Shown here: piece after piece, positions 711 to 5,089 of the stretch
Layout: each line of letters begins with the position of its first letter
Position numbering within the stretch: position 1 is the stretch's first letter
IMG/VR virus record: IMGVR_UViG_2695420646_000007
DNA from: a virus
Lineage: Duplodnaviria; Heunggongvirae; Uroviricota; Caudoviricetes
Direction: 5' to 3' (one strand)
DNA: 14,203 bases
Translations under genes and position numbers: made by a program
Notes under the pieces: model-generated
Database searches by the model: none
The model's input: only the letters and a program-made list of their open reading frames with translations
What the model was told of the DNA's origin: nothing

Positions 711-1007
711 TTATACCTCTGAATCAATATCAACCTGGTGGTGAGCAATGGTTTCAACCATGTACCGGATGTGTTCTGCCATGCGCTCCTGAAACTCAAC
801 ATCGTCATCAAACGCACGGATAATGGCTTTTTTGCTGGCCCCGTGGCGTTGCAAATGATCGATGCATAGCGATTCAAACAGGTGCTGGGGCAGGCCTTTT
901 TCCATGTCGTCTGCCAGTTCTGCCTCTTTCTCTTCACGGGCGATCTGCTGGTAGTGACGCGCCCAGCTCTGAGCCTCAAGACGATCCTGAATGTAATAAG
1001 CGTTCAT
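711..1007 (-). CDS. gam: Gam, RecBCD inhibitor; 98 aa, equivalent to the short GamS form
   Basis: ORF track 98 aa [98 protein letters not shown], near-identical to lambda Gam as I recall it. Stop lies 5 bp upstream of the bet start. An in-frame stop at 1062..1064 upstream of the ATG rules out a longer form. Confidence 0.88.
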
Positions 1008-1083: not shown

Positions 1084-1494
1084 TTAGTGATTCAGGCCGT
1101 TACCGCGTCCGTCGAGAAAAACTTCTACGAGCAAATCACGGGTATAAGTGCGCTCGATGCCGCGATGCAGATAAAGCCGTCCGCGTAAATTAGCTGATGC
1201 AGTCCAGGTACCATCTTTGTGTTTGACCAGCATTCCTGGCATGACCGCGCCGCGATTAACGGTCTGTGTTCCGTAATGTTGATGAACCATAAAAACTCCT
1301 GCCCGTAAGCTGGGCTGCTGAACATATAGAGACTTCTGCGCGTATTCAGGCGGTGGATGGCCGCCGGTTGTCATAACTAAGCCGCCTCGTTGAAGCGACT
1401 GAGGTATGAAATGTTGAGTTAATTTCAGCTGGTCACACCGACGTTCACGCGTCCGTTTCACCCCTCGCACTCCCCGAAGCCTGCTGAAATTCAA
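1084..1494 (-). CDS. Early-left operon protein, possibly an N-like antiterminator; start uncertain (TTG at 1494 or GTG at 1461)
   Basis: Only sizeable ORF between gam and the predicted pL, on the correct strand. N-terminal region is arginine-rich (VKRTRERRCDQLKL), reminiscent of the arginine-rich motif of N proteins. The track start is a TTG; a GTG at 1461..1459 preceded by GGGAG would give MKRTRERR... No family match I can assert. Confidence 0.4.
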   Translation of the reverse strand: MNFSRLRGVRGVKRTRERRCDQLKLTQHFIPQSLQRGGLVMTTGGHPPPEYAQKSLYVQQPSLRAGVFMVHQHYGTQTVNRGAVMPGMLVKHKDGTWTASANLRGRLYLHRGIERTYTRDLLVEVFLDGRGNGLNH

Positions 1495-1567
1495 ACTGCG
1501 GATCTAAGCGGTCATCGCAACGGTGAATCAGGTGGTTGCCGTATCGTTGTGTTGTTGCGATATGGTG

Positions 1568-1596
1568 ATAATAGCTATTGCTATTGGTGATATCAA
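1568..1596 (-). promoter_or_regulatory. Candidate pL early-left promoter (TTGATA, 17 bp spacer, TATTAT on the minus strand)
   Basis: Minus-strand read: TTGATA (plus 1596..1591), 17-nt spacer TCACCAATAGCAATAGC, TATTAT (plus 1573..1568). The spacer contains the repeated operator-like motif. Position and orientation match lambda pL relative to N and the rex slot. Confidence 0.45.
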
Positions 1597-1646
1597 TACT
1601 TATTGCTATTGACTGATGTGTTTTGATATTAAATGTTTGATAGCAA
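1573..1646. promoter_or_regulatory. Candidate OL operator cluster: repeated TTGCTATTG motif
   Basis: TTGCTATTG at 1578..1586 (within a tandem GCTATT GCTATT G) and at 1603..1611; inverted near-copy TGATAGCAA at 1638..1646. The same 9-mer recurs in the cI-cro intergenic region. Confidence 0.45.
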
Positions 1647-1735
1647 AAAGAATTAATTTTGTGACTTGCATCGCATAGCGATAACTGAAGCAGGGATGTG
1701 GTGGTTTTTTGAGCGGTGTGTGATGAGGGGAGGGG

Positions 1736-1764
1736 ACAAAAGAAAACCCGGCACGGTGGCCGGG
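1736..1764 (-). terminator. Intrinsic terminator ending the cI-linked cargo operon
   Basis: GC-rich hairpin CCCGGC-ACGGTG-GCCGGG (1747..1764); on the minus strand it is followed by TTTTCTTTT (complement of 1736..1746). Lies 27 nt past the stop of the 1791..2597 gene. Confidence 0.6.
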
Positions 1765-1790
1765 TTATTAATTAAATTAGTCAGTTTTTT

Positions 1791-2597
1791 CTACTGTAAC
1801 ATAGAGGCAGCATTCAGCATCTTTTCGTAATATGAACGCATGTCTTCTTTGCTATATGCGTTGATAAGATTATCAGCGTGTTTTTCCAGTAGATTTAGCT
1901 GCTGTTTTGCTGACTTTTCTTGTGCTGTCGTTTCAGCGGCAAAAATTACAAATGAATCAATATTTGAATTGTATAATTCGTAGGCTTTAGTAATTGTTAA
2001 AACACTTATCGCAGCTTCACCCATTTGTTTTTTTATATTTTCAGAACGAAAATCTAATGTTTCTGTAAGATGGTATTTGCCATTTTTTAACAAAAAATCT
2101 GCAACTAACCCTTCTTCATTACTAATTGGATAATTAGCTACGATTTTATGTTGGGAAAGATCTTCAAAATACTTACTGAAAATTCCATGTTGTATAAAGG
2201 TGGATTTTAATTCAGAAAAAACCTTTTTTTTCAACTGTTTATGTGGCTGTTTTTGTGGGTTTACTAACCGATTCATTAGATCAGTAACTTTAGCTTCGTA
2301 ATCTTCGTTGGCTTGAAGAGTGAACATGCCAAATGACGATAACGATAATGCTCCCTTAAAAAGACAAGGAAGAAGTTCAGCATTGTTGATTTTTTGTGAC
2401 AAATCAAAAAGCGAGGTCGAAAGATCCTCTAAGTAATCTAAGGTAAGATCTTTGTCAATCGCTTTAAGTTTTGAAACTGAATTGAGCATACGTACGTCTA
2501 TGTCAGAGTCATGGTAAACGATCAAACCAACGTTAATCGTTTCACCTTTCTCTAAGTTCGGTGTAACTCTGATTAAGCTGTATTTGAAAGTTTTCAA
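1791..2597 (-). CDS. Hypothetical 268-aa protein, partner of the HipA-like kinase; N-terminus resembles what I recall of the DUF3037 family
   Basis: ORF track 268 aa. The TTG start overlaps the upstream gene's TGA stop (TTGA), with GGAG 10 nt upstream, indicating translational coupling. AT-rich. N-terminus KYSLIRVTPNLEKGETINVGLIVY. The next in-frame ATG is 36 codons in, so the TTG start is preferred. Confidence 0.65.
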   Translation of the reverse strand: MKTFKYSLIRVTPNLEKGETINVGLIVYHDSDIDVRMLNSVSKLKAIDKDLTLDYLEDLSTSLFDLSQKINNAELLPCLFKGALSLSSFGMFTLQANEDYEAKVTDLMNRLVNPQKQPHKQLKKKVFSELKSTFIQHGIFSKYFEDLSQHKIVANYPISNEEGLVADFLLKNGKYHLTETLDFRSENIKKQMGEAAISVLTITKAYELYNSNIDSFVIFAAETTAQEKSAKQQLNLLEKHADNLINAYSKEDMRSYYEKMLNAASMLQ

Positions 2598-3442
2598 GAT
2601 GTTATCTCCAGTCTTATGGCATTTAGCCTATCGATTCGCTCCTCGCTGTCCCACCACTTCAAAAAATACTCCTTATGCATTGGTGGCATCCATGCTTCAG
2701 GCATAGAGTTAAGTATATCAGATATAGCCTCAACTCCAATTTTTTCAATTTTGTCAAGGACAGATAATGCGCACTTTCTCAGATCATCAGTGTCGCCAAT
2801 GAATTGTTTAGCAATCGTCCAGTTTGTTGTTGTACTGGAGTCTGTTGGTAGTATATGAGGGGTATTTCGTGGCCAGCCTATAACAAAAGAGCTTAGACTA
2901 AAATCGAATGTTTTAACTATAACATTGCCTCGGGTGTTTTCCATGTATAAGTAGTTGTTGAGGTGTCTGTCAATGTTATATACAAACTGATCAAATGCAT
3001 AAATTGCCCAGAGTTGCTTCTTTAAGGATTCAGAAGCATTTGAGAGCAAATTTATCCATTGAGGACTATTGAGACCAGATTTCCAGGCTGAAAACTCTAT
3101 GCGAGAGCCAAAAACATACTCCCCATTAGCAATACACTTGAGAATTTTGCACACAGGTGTAGCGATGCCGCATTTTTCAGCTAAATTTGTGCAAAACCAT
3201 TCCGCTGCCGGTACTTGAGTTGGGTTTTGTACAGGAAAAGGTGGGGTGGAGCGCATGCTTTTAACTGCATATTCCATTTCATCAGTGGCAATAGCGAAAC
3301 CAGAAAGGTGTGCTGTGCCTAAGCTTGAAGGTGTATATTCATGAAATTCTAATTCAAACAAACTTCCTTGCTCTGGTTTCACTTCATCAGTGTTTGACTC
3401 TTGTTCTTTCGTCATCAACTTTTTTCCCCAAATCGAAGACAT
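2594..3442 (-). CDS. Atypical HipA-family (PI3/4-kinase-like fold) Ser/Thr kinase-like protein, 282 aa
   Basis: ORF track 282 aa; ATG at 3442 preceded by AAGAGG. Contains FVYNIDRHLNNYLYM followed 13 residues later by VKTFDFSLS, matching the HipA-type catalytic loop (N-x-D-x-H-x-x-N) and Mg-binding [FY]-D-[FL]-x-S pattern as I recall them. No recognisable HipA N-terminal domain or glycine-rich Q-x-K loop. AT-rich, immediately downstream of cI on the same strand. Confidence 0.7.
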   Translation of the reverse strand: MSSIWGKKLMTKEQESNTDEVKPEQGSLFELEFHEYTPSSLGTAHLSGFAIATDEMEYAVKSMRSTPPFPVQNPTQVPAAEWFCTNLAEKCGIATPVCKILKCIANGEYVFGSRIEFSAWKSGLNSPQWINLLSNASESLKKQLWAIYAFDQFVYNIDRHLNNYLYMENTRGNVIVKTFDFSLSSFVIGWPRNTPHILPTDSSTTTNWTIAKQFIGDTDDLRKCALSVLDKIEKIGVEAISDILNSMPEAWMPPMHKEYFLKWWDSEERIDRLNAIRLEITS

Positions 3443-3488
3443 GCGGACCTCTTAAATTTGAACAACATCATAATGATTAGCTAATCCG

Positions 3489-4181
3489 CTACCCATGCTT
3501 CCTATACGTCTGCGGCATGCTCCCAATAACCTTACCGAAGATGAACACCCGGTTCATCTCGTCTTTCTCGATCGGGTCCCACGGTGAGTAGCTCTTGTTA
3601 TCAGAGATAACCAGCAGCTTATCCTTCATCATTTGCAGACGCTTTACATGGGCTGTGTCGTCGTACAGAAACGCATAGATACCATCACCGTCGAAAGATT
3701 TAACCGTGATATCAACGAACAGCAGATCACCTGGTTCGATCGTTCCTGACATGCTGTCACCACGCACGTTAATGATGCGGATATTTTCCGCCTTCCTGCC
3801 ATCGAACATGTGACGAGCATCGTCAAACGAGTACTCAACCGAGCGTAGAACTTCTACAAACTCACGGTTGATTACACCCGGCCCGGCACTGACTTCTATA
3901 TCAAGAACGTCAATTTTGAAGTATTTGGAATGGCTGACAGCAGGCTTCCCTGATTGTTGACCGTCATTTCTCATCGGGCCTATGCCTGATGAGAGCCATT
4001 CTGTTCGAACACCCAATGCATTAGCTATTTCAACAATTTTTGTTGAGCCGCGCGCGTTGCCGCTTGTCAGTCTCCAGATTGTGGGTTGAGCTACGCCAGA
4101 CGCCTTTGCAAGAGCGCCTTGAGACATTCCAGATTGTTCCATCGCTAGGTTTAAGCGATCAGCAAGAGTTTCTTTTTTCAT
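3489..4181 (-). CDS. cI: CI-like prophage repressor (N-terminal HTH_XRE, C-terminal S24/LexA-like autopeptidase)
   Basis: Translation from ATG at 4181..4179: MKKETLADRLNLAMEQSGMSQGALAKASGVAQPTIWRL... (HTH), a possible Ala-Gly cleavage site in EVSAGPGV, and RGDSMSGTIEPGDLLFVD...VKRLQ (Ser/Lys dyad context). The track's 4217 start is a TTG 36 nt upstream; the ATG is preferred. Divergent from cro. Confidence 0.85.
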   Translation of the reverse strand: MKKETLADRLNLAMEQSGMSQGALAKASGVAQPTIWRLTSGNARGSTKIVEIANALGVRTEWLSSGIGPMRNDGQQSGKPAVSHSKYFKIDVLDIEVSAGPGVINREFVEVLRSVEYSFDDARHMFDGRKAENIRIINVRGDSMSGTIEPGDLLFVDITVKSFDGDGIYAFLYDDTAHVKRLQMMKDKLLVISDNKSYSPWDPIEKDEMNRVFIFGKVIGSMPQTYRKHG

Positions 4182-4188
4182 AAGTTTT

Positions 4189-4217
4189 AATTTATACGCT
4201 TGCGTATTGATGGTCAA
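4189..4217 (-). promoter_or_regulatory. Candidate pRM (maintenance promoter) giving a near-leaderless cI mRNA
   Basis: Minus-strand read: TTGACC (plus 4217..4212), 17-nt spacer, TAAATT (plus 4194..4189), ending 8 nt before the cI ATG. Overlaps the palindrome ATACGC-TT-GCGTAT (4194..4207). Confidence 0.35.
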
Positions 4218-4225
4218 AACACGTT

Positions 4226-4283
4226 TTGCTATTGCTTGGATTAATACGCATTGCTATTATTCATTCATTGCAATACCAATAGG
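4226..4283. promoter_or_regulatory. Candidate OR operator cluster: TTGCTATTG motif copies plus palindromic ATTGCAAT
   Basis: TTGCTATTG at 4226..4234, TTGCTATTA at 4251..4259, and CATTGCAATACCAATAGG at 4266..4283 containing the palindrome ATTGCAAT. Same motif as in the pL region, as expected for operators bound by one repressor. Confidence 0.45.
4232..4260 (+). promoter_or_regulatory. Candidate pR early-right promoter (TTGCTT, 17 bp spacer, TATTAT)
   Basis: TTGCTT at 4232..4237, 17-bp spacer, TATTAT at 4255..4260, 31 nt upstream of the cro ATG. The -10 hexamer is embedded in an operator motif copy, mirroring the pL arrangement. Confidence 0.45.
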
Positions 4284-4291
4284 AATTGATA

Positions 4292-4519
4292 ATGACAAAT
4301 CAAACCATTCAACTCGCAATCAGTATTACAGGTAGTCAAAAACGACTGGCAGATCTATGCGGTGTAGCCCAACCCACTGTTTGGCGTTGGCTACACGGTG
4401 GCGGAATTGATGCCCGCTATGTAATGAAAATTGTCTCAGCCACTGGTGGAAAGATTAAACCAGCAGATATTCGTCCCGACCTCGCACCATTGTTTAACGC
4501 GAGTAATTCTGCCGCCTAA
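4292..4519 (+). CDS. cro: Cro-like HTH repressor
   Basis: ATG at 4292 with AGGAA 7 nt upstream; MTNQTIQLAISITGSQKRLADLCGVAQPTVWRWLHGG... has a Cro/CI-type helix-turn-helix. Divergent from cI across a 110-bp operator region. The track's 4286 start is a TTG. Confidence 0.8.
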   Translation: MTNQTIQLAISITGSQKRLADLCGVAQPTVWRWLHGGGIDARYVMKIVSATGGKIKPADIRPDLAPLFNASNSAA

Positions 4520-4527
4520 ACTGCGGC
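4511..4527 (+). promoter_or_regulatory. BoxB-like stem-loop (candidate nutR element) overlapping the cro stop codon
   Basis: GCCGC-CTAAACT-GCGGC: 5-bp GC-rich stem with a 7-nt A-rich loop and no following U-tract, so it is not a terminator. Sits immediately downstream of cro, where lambdoid nutR lies. I could not identify a boxA. Confidence 0.3.
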
Positions 4528-4543
4528 GTTAACTGATAAGGCA

Positions 4544-5089
4544 ATGACTATGCAACCACTTACATACCAACAGACTAGCGGATTTATCCCGACTGCGGTG
4601 ATAAATCGTTCTCAAATAAAACAGGTGCCAGGCCACGAAAAAATCCGTGATGCCATCCGCGCCTGGTCGGCTGTAGATAATCAGGATGTCGTTGCCGCAC
4701 TCATTGTGAATGAGTATCGAGCACAGGGCGGCGGCACTATCGATTTTTCTGATGATGTCAGTCGTGCACGCCAGAAGCTGTTCCGCTTTCTCGATAACAA
4801 ATTCGATTCTGAAAAATACCGAAATAACGTGCGTGAACTGACTCCAGCAATTCTGGCAGTACTACCGCTGAAATATCGCGGCCACCTGGTTGAGCAGGAT
4901 AGCTTCATGGCTCGGCTGGCTGAAATGGAAAAGGAACTCAGTGAGGCAAAACAGGCTGTCATTCTCAACGCACCACGCCACCAGAAACTGAAGGAGATGA
5001 GTGAAGGCATTGTGTCGATGTTTCGTGTGGACCCGGATTTGGCTGGTCCACTGATGGCGATGGTCACCACCATGCTGGGGGCAATATGA
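4544..5089 (+). CDS. YdaT-like (DUF1019) protein in the cII position
   Basis: 181 aa; ATG preceded by TAAGG. Motifs NEYRAQGGG and LTPAILAVLPLKYRGHL resemble what I recall of Rac-prophage YdaT family proteins, which follow cro-like genes. The family call is from memory and unverified. Confidence 0.55.
   Translation: MTMQPLTYQQTSGFIPTAVINRSQIKQVPGHEKIRDAIRAWSAVDNQDVVAALIVNEYRAQGGGTIDFSDDVSRARQKLFRFLDNKFDSEKYRNNVRELTPAILAVLPLKYRGHLVEQDSFMARLAEMEKELSEAKQAVILNAPRHQKLKEMSEGIVSMFRVDPDLAGPLMAMVTTMLGAI

Follow-up and report, generated by a model that had tools for sequence, protein, structure and literature searches.

The region that concerns us lies between positions 1,568 and 4,283 of a 14,203-nucleotide stretch of viral DNA (Caudoviricetes; IMG/VR record IMGVR_UViG_2695420646_000007), which we refer to in its entirety as the window. 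It carries a gene for a cI-like repressor, a divergently transcribed cro-like gene, candidate early promoters to the left (pL) and to the right (pR), and, at each of these promoters, a cluster of repeated sequences, which we designate the left operator (OL) and the right operator (OR). Judged from its sequence, the region appears to be the immunity switch of a lambda-like prophage of Escherichia coli that has its own operator sequence and follows the same cI/Cro logic as lambda, a reading whose probability we put at roughly 85%.

The repressor gene, cI, is located on the minus strand (3489–4181). Its inferred product of 230 amino acids matches Pfam HTH_3 at the N-terminus and Peptidase_S24 at the C-terminus (E = 1.3e-18), and it contains the sequences SAGPG starting at residue 98 (Ala99-Gly100), GDSM starting at residue 141 (Ser143), and VKRL starting at residue 179 (Lys180). 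From what is known of LexA and lambda cI, we take the alanine-glycine pair to be the cleavage site and the serine and lysine to be the dyad. The N-terminal domain can be aligned without gaps over 60 residues to residues 4–63 of the 434 repressor (phmmer E = 1e-5 to 2e-6), and its recognition helix, QPTIWRL, starts at residue 32. Facing cI across a gap of 110 bp is cro (4292–4519, plus strand), whose product of 75 amino acids belongs to the Pfam family YdaS_toxin (E = 9.6e-15) and also exhibits a weak match to P22_Cro. The helix-turn-helix of Cro is 40% identical to that of cI, and the recognition helices of the two proteins (QPTVWRW in Cro) are nearly identical. Only 24 bp separate cro from the next gene, which encodes a regulator of the YdaT family (4544–5089, plus strand; Pfam YdaT_toxin, E = 2.1e-28) that is assigned to phrog_163, "CII-like transcriptional activator." We also searched for lambda-type binding sites for such a regulator and rejected the outcome: the pattern TTGC-N6-TTGY was matched once, inside a kinase gene (see below), which is the level expected by chance.

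Proposed operators at OL and OR

An earlier note on this DNA had called attention to a 9-mer, TTGCTATTG, that recurs on the two sides of the region, and had left the nature of the operator unit unsettled. Exact copies of the 9-mer are found at 1578–1586, 1603–1611, and 4226–4234, but the copy that had been placed at 4251–4259 in fact reads TTGCTATTA and has one mismatch. The inverted near-copy that had been noticed at 1638–1646 is present, the minus strand there reading TTGCTATCA, with two mismatches. The shorter 8-mer TTGCTATT occurs exactly four times in the window, in every case in OL or OR, as compared with 0.76 copies expected, and one of 200 shuffled sequences reached this number.

We propose that the operator unit is a 16-bp pseudo-palindrome, of which the 9-mer is the better-conserved half together with one flanking base. 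The consensus for the unit is AATACGyATTGCTATT, which can also be given as AATAC-N6-GCTATT, with a 14-bp core of ATAC-N6-GTAT. The two halves of every site are unequal, one (TTGCTATT) being well conserved and the other looser, and neighboring 16-mers are 25 bp apart in OL as well as in OR. In the window the consensus half-sites all point in the same direction on the plus strand, even though the geometry of pL and pR is mirrored. The symmetrical pattern AATA-N8-TATT is found three times in the window, again exclusively in OL and OR (0.35 expected), and an independent search for repeats returned 1570–1586 with 1595–1611 (25-bp spacing) and 4190–4208 with 4240–4258 (50-bp spacing).

The right operator contains three such sites: OR3 (4193–4208, TATACGCTTGCGTATT), OR2 (4218–4233, AACACGTTTTGCTATT), and OR1 (4243–4258, AATACGCATTGCTATT), the last of which is an exact match to AATA-N8-TATT and, as a direct repeat 50 bp away, matches OR3 at 74% of its positions. 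The palindrome ATACGC-TT-GCGTAT at 4194–4207, which had been regarded as a separate element, is indeed present and corresponds to OR3, which makes it a member of the same operator family as OR1 and OR2. The left operator lies in an immunity-specific block at 1561–1655 that also includes pL (the limits are those of divergence from the hetero-immune group B phages described below, columns 81–175 of alignment A1). Its two strong sites are OL1 (1570–1585, AATAGCTATTGCTATT), which is likewise an exact match to AATA-N8-TATT, and OL2 (1595–1610, AATACTTATTGCTATT).

Weight matrices built from one operator identified the other. Outside its training set, a matrix derived from the three OR sites alone gave its two highest scores in the 14.2-kb window to OL2 (17.1 bits) and OL1 (13.2 bits), in that order. 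Conversely, a matrix derived from the two OL sites alone ranked OR1 first among other sites (17.3 bits), a sequence at 4272–4287 second, and OR2 third (14.2 bits). When all five sites were used, the further matches of at least 10 bits were all in or beside OL and OR (1589–1604, 1639–1654, 4272–4287, and 4312–4327).

Conservation of the operators among prophages of several genera

About 22 complete E. coli genomes contain prophages that match the 3.2 kb spanning the region with 100% identity. Outside the cargo genes (see below), this sequence is 96–98% identical to the isolated Bievrevirus phages PhiR30_1, PhiR68_2, PhiR70_1, 4A7, Lambda_4C10, D2, 1W, 3W, and Perceval. OR together with the N-terminal region of cI was found in 719 of 5426 complete E. 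coli genomes (about 13%), O157:H7 strains among them, and in prophages of at least five further enterobacterial genera. We made an ungapped comparison of nine lineages, taken from E. coli, the Salmonella phage ST104, a Klebsiella phage, three species of Kluyvera, Citrobacter, and Raoultella. The cI proteins of ST104 (86% identical overall), the Klebsiella phage (82%), and the Kluyvera, Citrobacter, and Raoultella prophages all have the helix VAQPTIWRL in common with the repressor of the window.

Of the 48 positions that make up the three OR sites, 44 do not vary among these prophages of six genera: all 16 columns of OR3, 15 of the 16 of OR2, and 13 of the 16 of OR1, whose variable columns are two central ones (positions 6 and 7) and the last base. 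The two spacers between the OR sites are invariant at just seven of 18 columns, and six of these seven form the −35 hexamer of a candidate promoter for cI (see below). At each locus a second cluster is present 2–3 kb past cI, with two strong sites 25 bp apart lying over TTGATA or TTGCTA and TATTAT. OL1 has kept its position, with ten of 16 columns invariant and with the consensus half on either side, and 12 of the 16 columns of OL2 are invariant. That the consensus half is on the opposite side of the site in several lineages is expected of a palindrome and not of a direct repeat. In the complete 41-kb genome of ST104, six matches of at least 16 bits were obtained as compared with an expectation of 0.06, and all but one of the six lie in its OL and OR; in a 49-kb segment of E. 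coli DNA, matches of at least 14 bits were found solely at the OL and OR of the prophage. No such clusters were detected by the matrix scan in lambda, P22, or HK022 or at the loci of the group B phages, and the lambda region produced no match of as much as 9 bits, in agreement with the earlier view that these operators are not lambda-like. The comparisons thus support the existence, at OL over pL and at OR between the divergent cI and cro genes, of a single repressor specificity that appears to be distinct from those of lambda, P22, and HK022, as had been suggested.

A different way to read the repeats is that the unit is not a 16-bp palindrome but an 8–9-bp direct repeat, TTGCTATT(G), recognized every 25 bp by monomers or by head-to-tail oligomers. 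In favor of this reading, the four exact copies of the 8-mer share one orientation on the plus strand and form pairs with a 25-bp spacing, the sequence GCTATTGCTATT is present in OL1, and positions 7–10 of several sites read TATT. Yet OR3, the most conserved element of all, lacks the 8-mer and is a perfect 14-bp palindrome. Also, conservation of the left half, AATAC, stops precisely where the 16-mer ends, the adjoining spacers being variable; the consensus half is on the other side of OL1 or OL2 elsewhere (for example, AATAGCAATGGGTATT); and the sites of the O157:H7 prophages score on the minus strand. Finally, the hetero-immune phages carry a perfect 16-bp palindrome in the same columns, and the repressor has a helix-turn-helix of the 434 type joined to a dimerizing S24 domain. 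We consider the direct-repeat explanation improbable.

In addition to the five principal sites, the comparison brought out several weaker elements at the periphery of the operators. At OL, a candidate for OL3 is located at 1639–1654 (minus-strand reading AATTCTTTTTGCTATC; 13.4 bits as a nontraining site), and we assign it with moderate confidence. It contains the inverted near-copy of the 9-mer, and the element GATAGC...GAATT to which it corresponds, 44 bp from OL2, is conserved in all nine lineages and ends at the right edge of the immunity block. A middle OL site at 1615–1630 (GATGTGTTTTGATATT) is degenerate, having kept the right half-site alone and scoring less than 7 bits in the window, and its assignment is tentative. 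Good sites are found at the same distance from OL2 (20 bp) in Klebsiella, Raoultella, and Kluyvera; one example, GATAGCAATGGCTATT, scores 16.4 bits. A regular third OL site 25 bp from OL2, mirroring OR3, was sought at 1620–1635 and rejected, there being no match at that position.

At OR, a possible fourth site (4272–4287; minus-strand reading AATTCCTATTGGTATT; 16.6 bits as a nontraining site), which we propose with low confidence, covers the ribosome-binding site of cro. The element AATAC-N4-AGGAATT that it represents is retained in most lineages, and what is constant is its distance from the cro ATG (28 or 29 bp), not its distance from OR1; its conservation may therefore reflect the ribosome-binding site. 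A weak operator-like sequence is also present within cro itself (4312–4327, minus strand, AATACTGATTGCGAGT, 10.4–13.4 bits), where it repeats the left half of OR1 in inverted orientation, and the cro gene of ST104 holds a comparable weak match at a different offset.

Candidate promoters

The geometry of the operators is best seen in relation to the promoters. The sequence TTGATA-17-TATTAT that had been put forward as pL (minus strand, 1596 to 1568) proved to be the best promoter-like match between 1300 and 4600 in a scan for consensus hexamers (10 of 12 positions). Its −10 hexamer (1568–1573) is retained in eight of the nine OL sequences, ST104 having TATTGT, and its −35 hexamer (1591–1596) appears as TTGATA or TTGCTA in the relatives. 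The left edge of the OL block, position 1561, coincides with the predicted start of the pL transcript. The sequence TTGCTT-17-TATTAT that had been proposed as pR is likewise present on the plus strand, with its −35 hexamer at 4232–4237 (TTGTTA, TTGCTA, or TTGCCT at the same position in the relatives) and its −10 hexamer at 4255–4260 (conserved in eight of nine lineages, the other having TATCAT). At pL and pR alike, the −10 hexamer shares 4 bp with site 1 and the −35 hexamer shares 2 bp with site 2.

The scan also returned a candidate promoter for cI, which we refer to as pRM (TTGACC-17-TAAATT, minus strand, 9 of 12 positions). Its −10 hexamer (4189–4194) is seven bases from the cI ATG, so that a transcript from it would begin on or beside the ATG, and cI has no Shine–Dalgarno sequence; hence, cI mRNA is likely to be leaderless or nearly so. 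The palindrome at 4194–4207 does overlap this −10 hexamer, as had been stated, by a single base (4194); for the full 16-bp OR3 the overlap amounts to 2 bp. The −35 hexamer (4212–4217) abuts OR2, and its plus-strand sequence, GGTCAA, is invariant in all nine lineages despite its position between operators. An additional palindrome, CAAAAC-AC-GTTTTG at 4215–4228, is also invariant in all nine lineages and spans the candidate pRM −35 hexamer and the left half of OR2; it may be the mere sum of these two elements or the site of another factor.

Transcription from pRM would proceed leftward through cI and the two cargo genes to an intrinsic terminator at 1745–1766 (minus strand), which was identified by a terminator scan as a stem of eight pairs, six of them GC pairs, followed by TTCTTTT. 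The terminator lies shortly beyond the stop codon, at 1791, of the second cargo gene.

A natural exchange of immunity among sister phages

Four phages that we designate group B (PhiR5_1, PhiR34_1, PhiR47_2, and IdasGreatGrand) are hetero-immune sisters of the group to which the phage of the window belongs (group A). Their flanking sequences are near-identical to those of the window, and the 3′ 557 nucleotides of their cI genes, from about residue 46 onward, are 90–91% identical. Four elements distinguish them from the window: the first 46 or so residues of cI, Cro, the whole of OR, and, in OL, exactly positions 1561–1655. The recognition helices of group B are SQAAIQKI in cI and SQQAVYKW in Cro, and a 16-bp palindrome of their own, AACAACAAAAGTTGTT, occupies exactly the columns of OL2. 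Thus, the operators, the helix of cI, and the helix of Cro have been exchanged together between the two groups. The mosaic junction within cI lies inside the DNA-binding domain (approximately 4040–4181, codons 1–46), just past the recognition helix, and from TKIVEIANALGV onward the repressors of the two immunity groups are nearly the same.

This exchange, together with the conservation described above, bears on the idea that the repeats are simply a by-product of AT-rich promoter sequence, that is, of words resembling −10 and −35 hexamers, and are not bound by any dedicated repressor. The OL and OR blocks are certainly very AT-rich (G+C content of 0.26 and 0.31, respectively), the motif overlaps TATTAT and TTG-type hexamers, and the 9-mer with one mismatch allowed is only weakly enriched, by about 2-fold (11 occurrences versus 5.4 expected). 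However, OR3 and those parts of OR2 and OL2 that lie outside the hexamers are conserved as well as the hexamers, whereas spacers of similar composition vary; the motif changes with the helices of cI and Cro in sister phages that have kept the positions of their promoters; and it is absent from the early promoters of lambda, P22, and HK022. We regard this explanation as very improbable.

Equally hard to sustain is the view that the 16-mers are chiefly bound by another factor, either the YdaT-type CII-like protein or a host protein, and that cI and Cro use other sites: although the YdaT-family regulator has no defined site here, TTGC-N6-TTGC boxes of the lambda type being absent from the early region, and although the operator model does not explain the invariant palindrome that overlaps OR2, ST104 has the same operators with a c1 gene of the lambda/L type in place of YdaT, the sites co-vary with the helices of cI and Cro and not with the CII-like gene (which is annotated as 540 bp long in both A and B phages, a comparison of annotated length alone), and sites placed in this way over the −10 and −35 hexamers of both early promoters are characteristic of a repressor.

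A model for the switch

What the compared sequences show directly is where the sites lie, how they are spaced and conserved, that they co-vary with the recognition helix, and which domains the proteins contain; from this we arrive at the following model. Dimers of an SOS-cleavable cI protein and the small Cro protein would recognize the same family of 16-bp pseudo-palindromes. OR1 would lie over the −10 hexamer of pR, OR2 on the −35 hexamer of pR and against the −35 hexamer of pRM, and OR3 over the −10 hexamer of pRM; 2.7 kb to the left, two strong OL sites would cover pL, with one or two weaker sites lying distal to them. In a lysogen, cI at OR1 and OR2 and at OL1 and OL2 would shut off pR and pL, and pRM would direct the synthesis of a transcript, probably leaderless, for cI and both cargo genes that ends at the terminator at 1745–1766. 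Self-cleavage of cI at Ala99-Gly100, stimulated by RecA, would relieve repression, and Cro would then take the same sites. By analogy, binding itself is expected to be cooperative and to fill the sites in a set order, with looping between OL and OR over 2.7 kb, activation of pRM, and transcript starts at the predicted positions.

Several observations weigh against the view that the region is a lambda-like switch with palindromic operators of its own. The E. coli relatives are so close that part of the conservation reflects shared ancestry, and the argument depends mostly on the loci from other genera. There is marked asymmetry in the sites, several of which have TATTGC directly repeated within them, so that a purely palindromic reading is not forced by the window alone. 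As for the third OL site, its identity is ambiguous: no site is present 25 bp from OL2, and the candidates at 20 and 44 bp score low in this phage. The −35 hexamer of pR is weak (3 of 6 matches to TTGACA) and was missed by the consensus scan, in which promoter-like matches were not enriched across the region (5 versus 8.2 expected); we retain pR as a promoter on the grounds that its position is conserved and that its geometry mirrors that of pL. Lastly, no study of binding, footprints, or transcript starts for this type of operator was found in the literature that we searched, and in the report on Perceval (PMC9928086) the word "operator" does not appear.

A bolder version of the model, which we consider doubtful, is that the region is a portable immunity cassette with an N-independent early program and an OR of four sites. 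Its parts would be OR, cro, the 95-bp OL block, and the first 46 or so residues of cI, and the extra site at 4272–4287, which coincides with the ribosome-binding site of cro, would fall between approximately +5 and +21 in the transcript from pR. If so, repressor or Cro bound there could act as a downstream roadblock or could couple the control of transcription to the translation of cro, and strongly asymmetric half-sites that all face one way could dictate the order in which the sites of the array are filled.

Returning to the simpler reading, a cI/Cro switch with its own operator sequence, we conclude that it is a widespread switch of a well-understood kind, which leaves the mechanistic understanding of such switches unchanged, and that the earlier annotation was right in substance and is sharpened here. 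What the operator sequence provides is a means to predict from sequence homo- and hetero-immunity among these prophages, to place pL, pR, and pRM in annotation, and to mark the operon from which any defense cargo between cI and OL is expressed. The sister phages, in turn, offer a clean natural example in which a recognition helix, Cro, and two operator blocks have been exchanged as a set.

Cargo genes between OL and cI

Two AT-rich genes (G+C content of 0.34–0.40) that overlap by 4 bp are located between OL and cI. The first (2594–3442, minus strand) encodes a HipA_2-like kinase of 282 amino acids (Pfam E = 1e-6; 28.7 bits, cut-off 27), has the Shine–Dalgarno sequence AAGAGG before its ATG, and gives weak PADLOC matches to PDC-M03A and PDC-M66A. 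The second (1791–2597, minus strand) encodes a DUF3037 protein of 268 amino acids (Pfam E = 1.6e-9; 38.5 bits, cut-off 22.6; phrog_5137) that matches PADLOC PDC-M66B (E = 2.6e-8). A kinase of the HipA family and a DUF3037 partner in one operon is the architecture described for DS-6/HipAD, and HipA/HipD has been reported to be an anti-phage defense (PMC13092281); this architecture is what we find here. Pairwise BLASTP comparison with the HipA/HipD pair annotated in PhiR5_1 revealed about 21% identity, a weak similarity (E = 0.015 and 0.004), and a Pfam scan gave no match in the partner protein to DUF1829, a domain found in the partner of the validated HipAD.

Related prophages with the same immunity region have other cargo at this position: SIR2 (O157:H7), an ASCH protein with a hypothetical protein ("GevA/GevT"), a transmembrane protein (Perceval), or a DUF6414 protein. 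From these comparisons the slot looks like a hotspot for defense genes that are expressed with cI. In a lysogen of Perceval, cI and the cargo gene adjoining OL are expressed (PMC9928086). The cI and OR of Perceval are 97.8% and 96.7% identical, respectively, to those of the window. In the prophage of the O157:H7 strain 17B6-2 (L023, 9303–9525), cro is annotated as frameshifted and cI, OR, and OL are intact, which suggests that this prophage is locked in repression.

Neighboring genes

To the left of OL, a transcript from pL would have a leader of about 270 nucleotides and would then enter kil (about 1084–1290, minus strand), beyond which is the gene for Gam (711–1007, minus strand). The open reading frame that includes kil extends from 1084 to 1494, and PHROGs assigns only its C-terminal part, as Kil; the upstream part contains the arginine-rich sequence RGVKRTRERR and has no family match. 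Neither an N-like antiterminator nor a nut site was found at 1084–1560 or 4519–4544 with Rfam and PHROGs, and Rfam at E values up to 1 revealed nothing relevant for the pL leader. A structured RNA or antiterminator in the leader was considered and rejected, the predicted fold of 1400–1561 (minus strand) being no better than those of shuffled sequences (z = +0.56).

To the right of the CII-like gene, the plus strand encodes the replication proteins O and P, NinB, RusA, and Q. A gene for a DUF4145 protein (7382–8134) is located in the nin region after P and ren. The prophage with identical immunity in strain Res13-Lact-PEA12-26 has a DUF4041 protein in its place, and this exchange suggests that the nin region may be a second variable slot for cargo. 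Downstream of Q are a lipocalin gene (11086–11610, minus strand) and a DUF1722/2-thiouracil desulfurase gene (11803–12762), which are unusual for the interval between Q and lysis; they could be morons or host DNA at the end of a truncated prophage.

Comparison with known systems

The region has the gene order of lambda: a leftward operon, OL, a terminator, two cargo genes, cI, OR, cro, a CII-like gene, O, and P. As in lambda, OR is tripartite, starting 12 bp from the cI ATG (11 bp in lambda) with a spacing of 25 bp (23–24 bp in lambda); the −10 hexamer of pRM is so near the ATG that the mRNA would be leaderless; and the repressor has a self-cleaving S24 domain. The operators of lambda, too, consist of a consensus half and a looser half. 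Those operators, however, are of the 17-bp TATCACCGC type, whereas those described here are 16 bp long and conform to AATAC-N6-GCTATT. Also unlike lambda, the region has a cro of the YdaS family, a CII-like gene of the YdaT family only 24 bp from cro, and neither an N gene nor a nut site that we could find. The position of rexA and rexB in lambda is held here by the HipA-like kinase and DUF3037 protein genes, and the third OL site is not at the regular spacing.

In the rightward direction, a gene for a Cro-like protein of the YdaS family precedes one for a YdaT-family protein and no N-type antiterminator is evident, features that are shared with racR-ydaS-ydaT of the Rac prophage. RacR is not known to be a full-length repressor with helix-turn-helix and S24 domains, unlike the cI protein described here.

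The operator of phage 434 is a 14-bp sequence, ACAA-N6-TTGT. The core of the sites described here, ATAC-N6-GTAT, has the same 4 + 6 + 4 layout, which fits the gap-free alignment of the N-terminal domain of cI to the 434 repressor. The specificity, in contrast, appears to be different: five of six residues differ between the recognition helix of 434 (Q28, Q29, S30, I31, E32, and Q33) and that of cI (Q32, P33, T34, I35, W36, and R37). The outer bases of the operators differ as well, the present sites being ATAC-N6-GTAT or ATAC-N6-CTAT with an additional conserved A/T on each side that extends them to 16 bp. Immunity of the 434 type was rejected when the sites were compared with ACAA-N6-TTGT and did not match. 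Immunity of the type of HK022, whose immunity region is likewise a lambdoid cI/cro region, was considered because the ST104 record describes cI and cro as "similar to HK022"; it was rejected also, since HK022 cI is 40% identical and no cluster of sites is present in HK022.

The closest counterpart is the Salmonella phage ST104. In the table of Casjens (PMC2629481), "ST104" is listed as a separate type of repressor specificity that has not been studied experimentally. The same group also takes in SE1, ST160, and a Klebsiella phage. The recognition helix of its cI, VAQPTIWRLTSG, is identical to that of the window and that of its Cro is QPTVWRW; its OR3 and OR2 are identical to those of the window and its OR1 is the same at 15 of 16 positions; and it has two OL sites 25 bp apart, with scores of 18.0 and 23.5 bits. 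ST104 differs in having a P22-like backbone, an N-like gene (gene 24), an L-type c1, a different cargo gene, and a different sequence downstream of OR1. That the same immunity module is found beside an N-like gene in ST104 indicates that it works in both kinds of backbone. Overall, the two cI proteins are 86% identical, which is below the 92% that PMC2629481 takes as its rule for a shared specificity, and the Cro proteins are 69% identical. Nevertheless, in both the recognition helix and the operators, the specificity of the switch appears to match that of the ST104 type.

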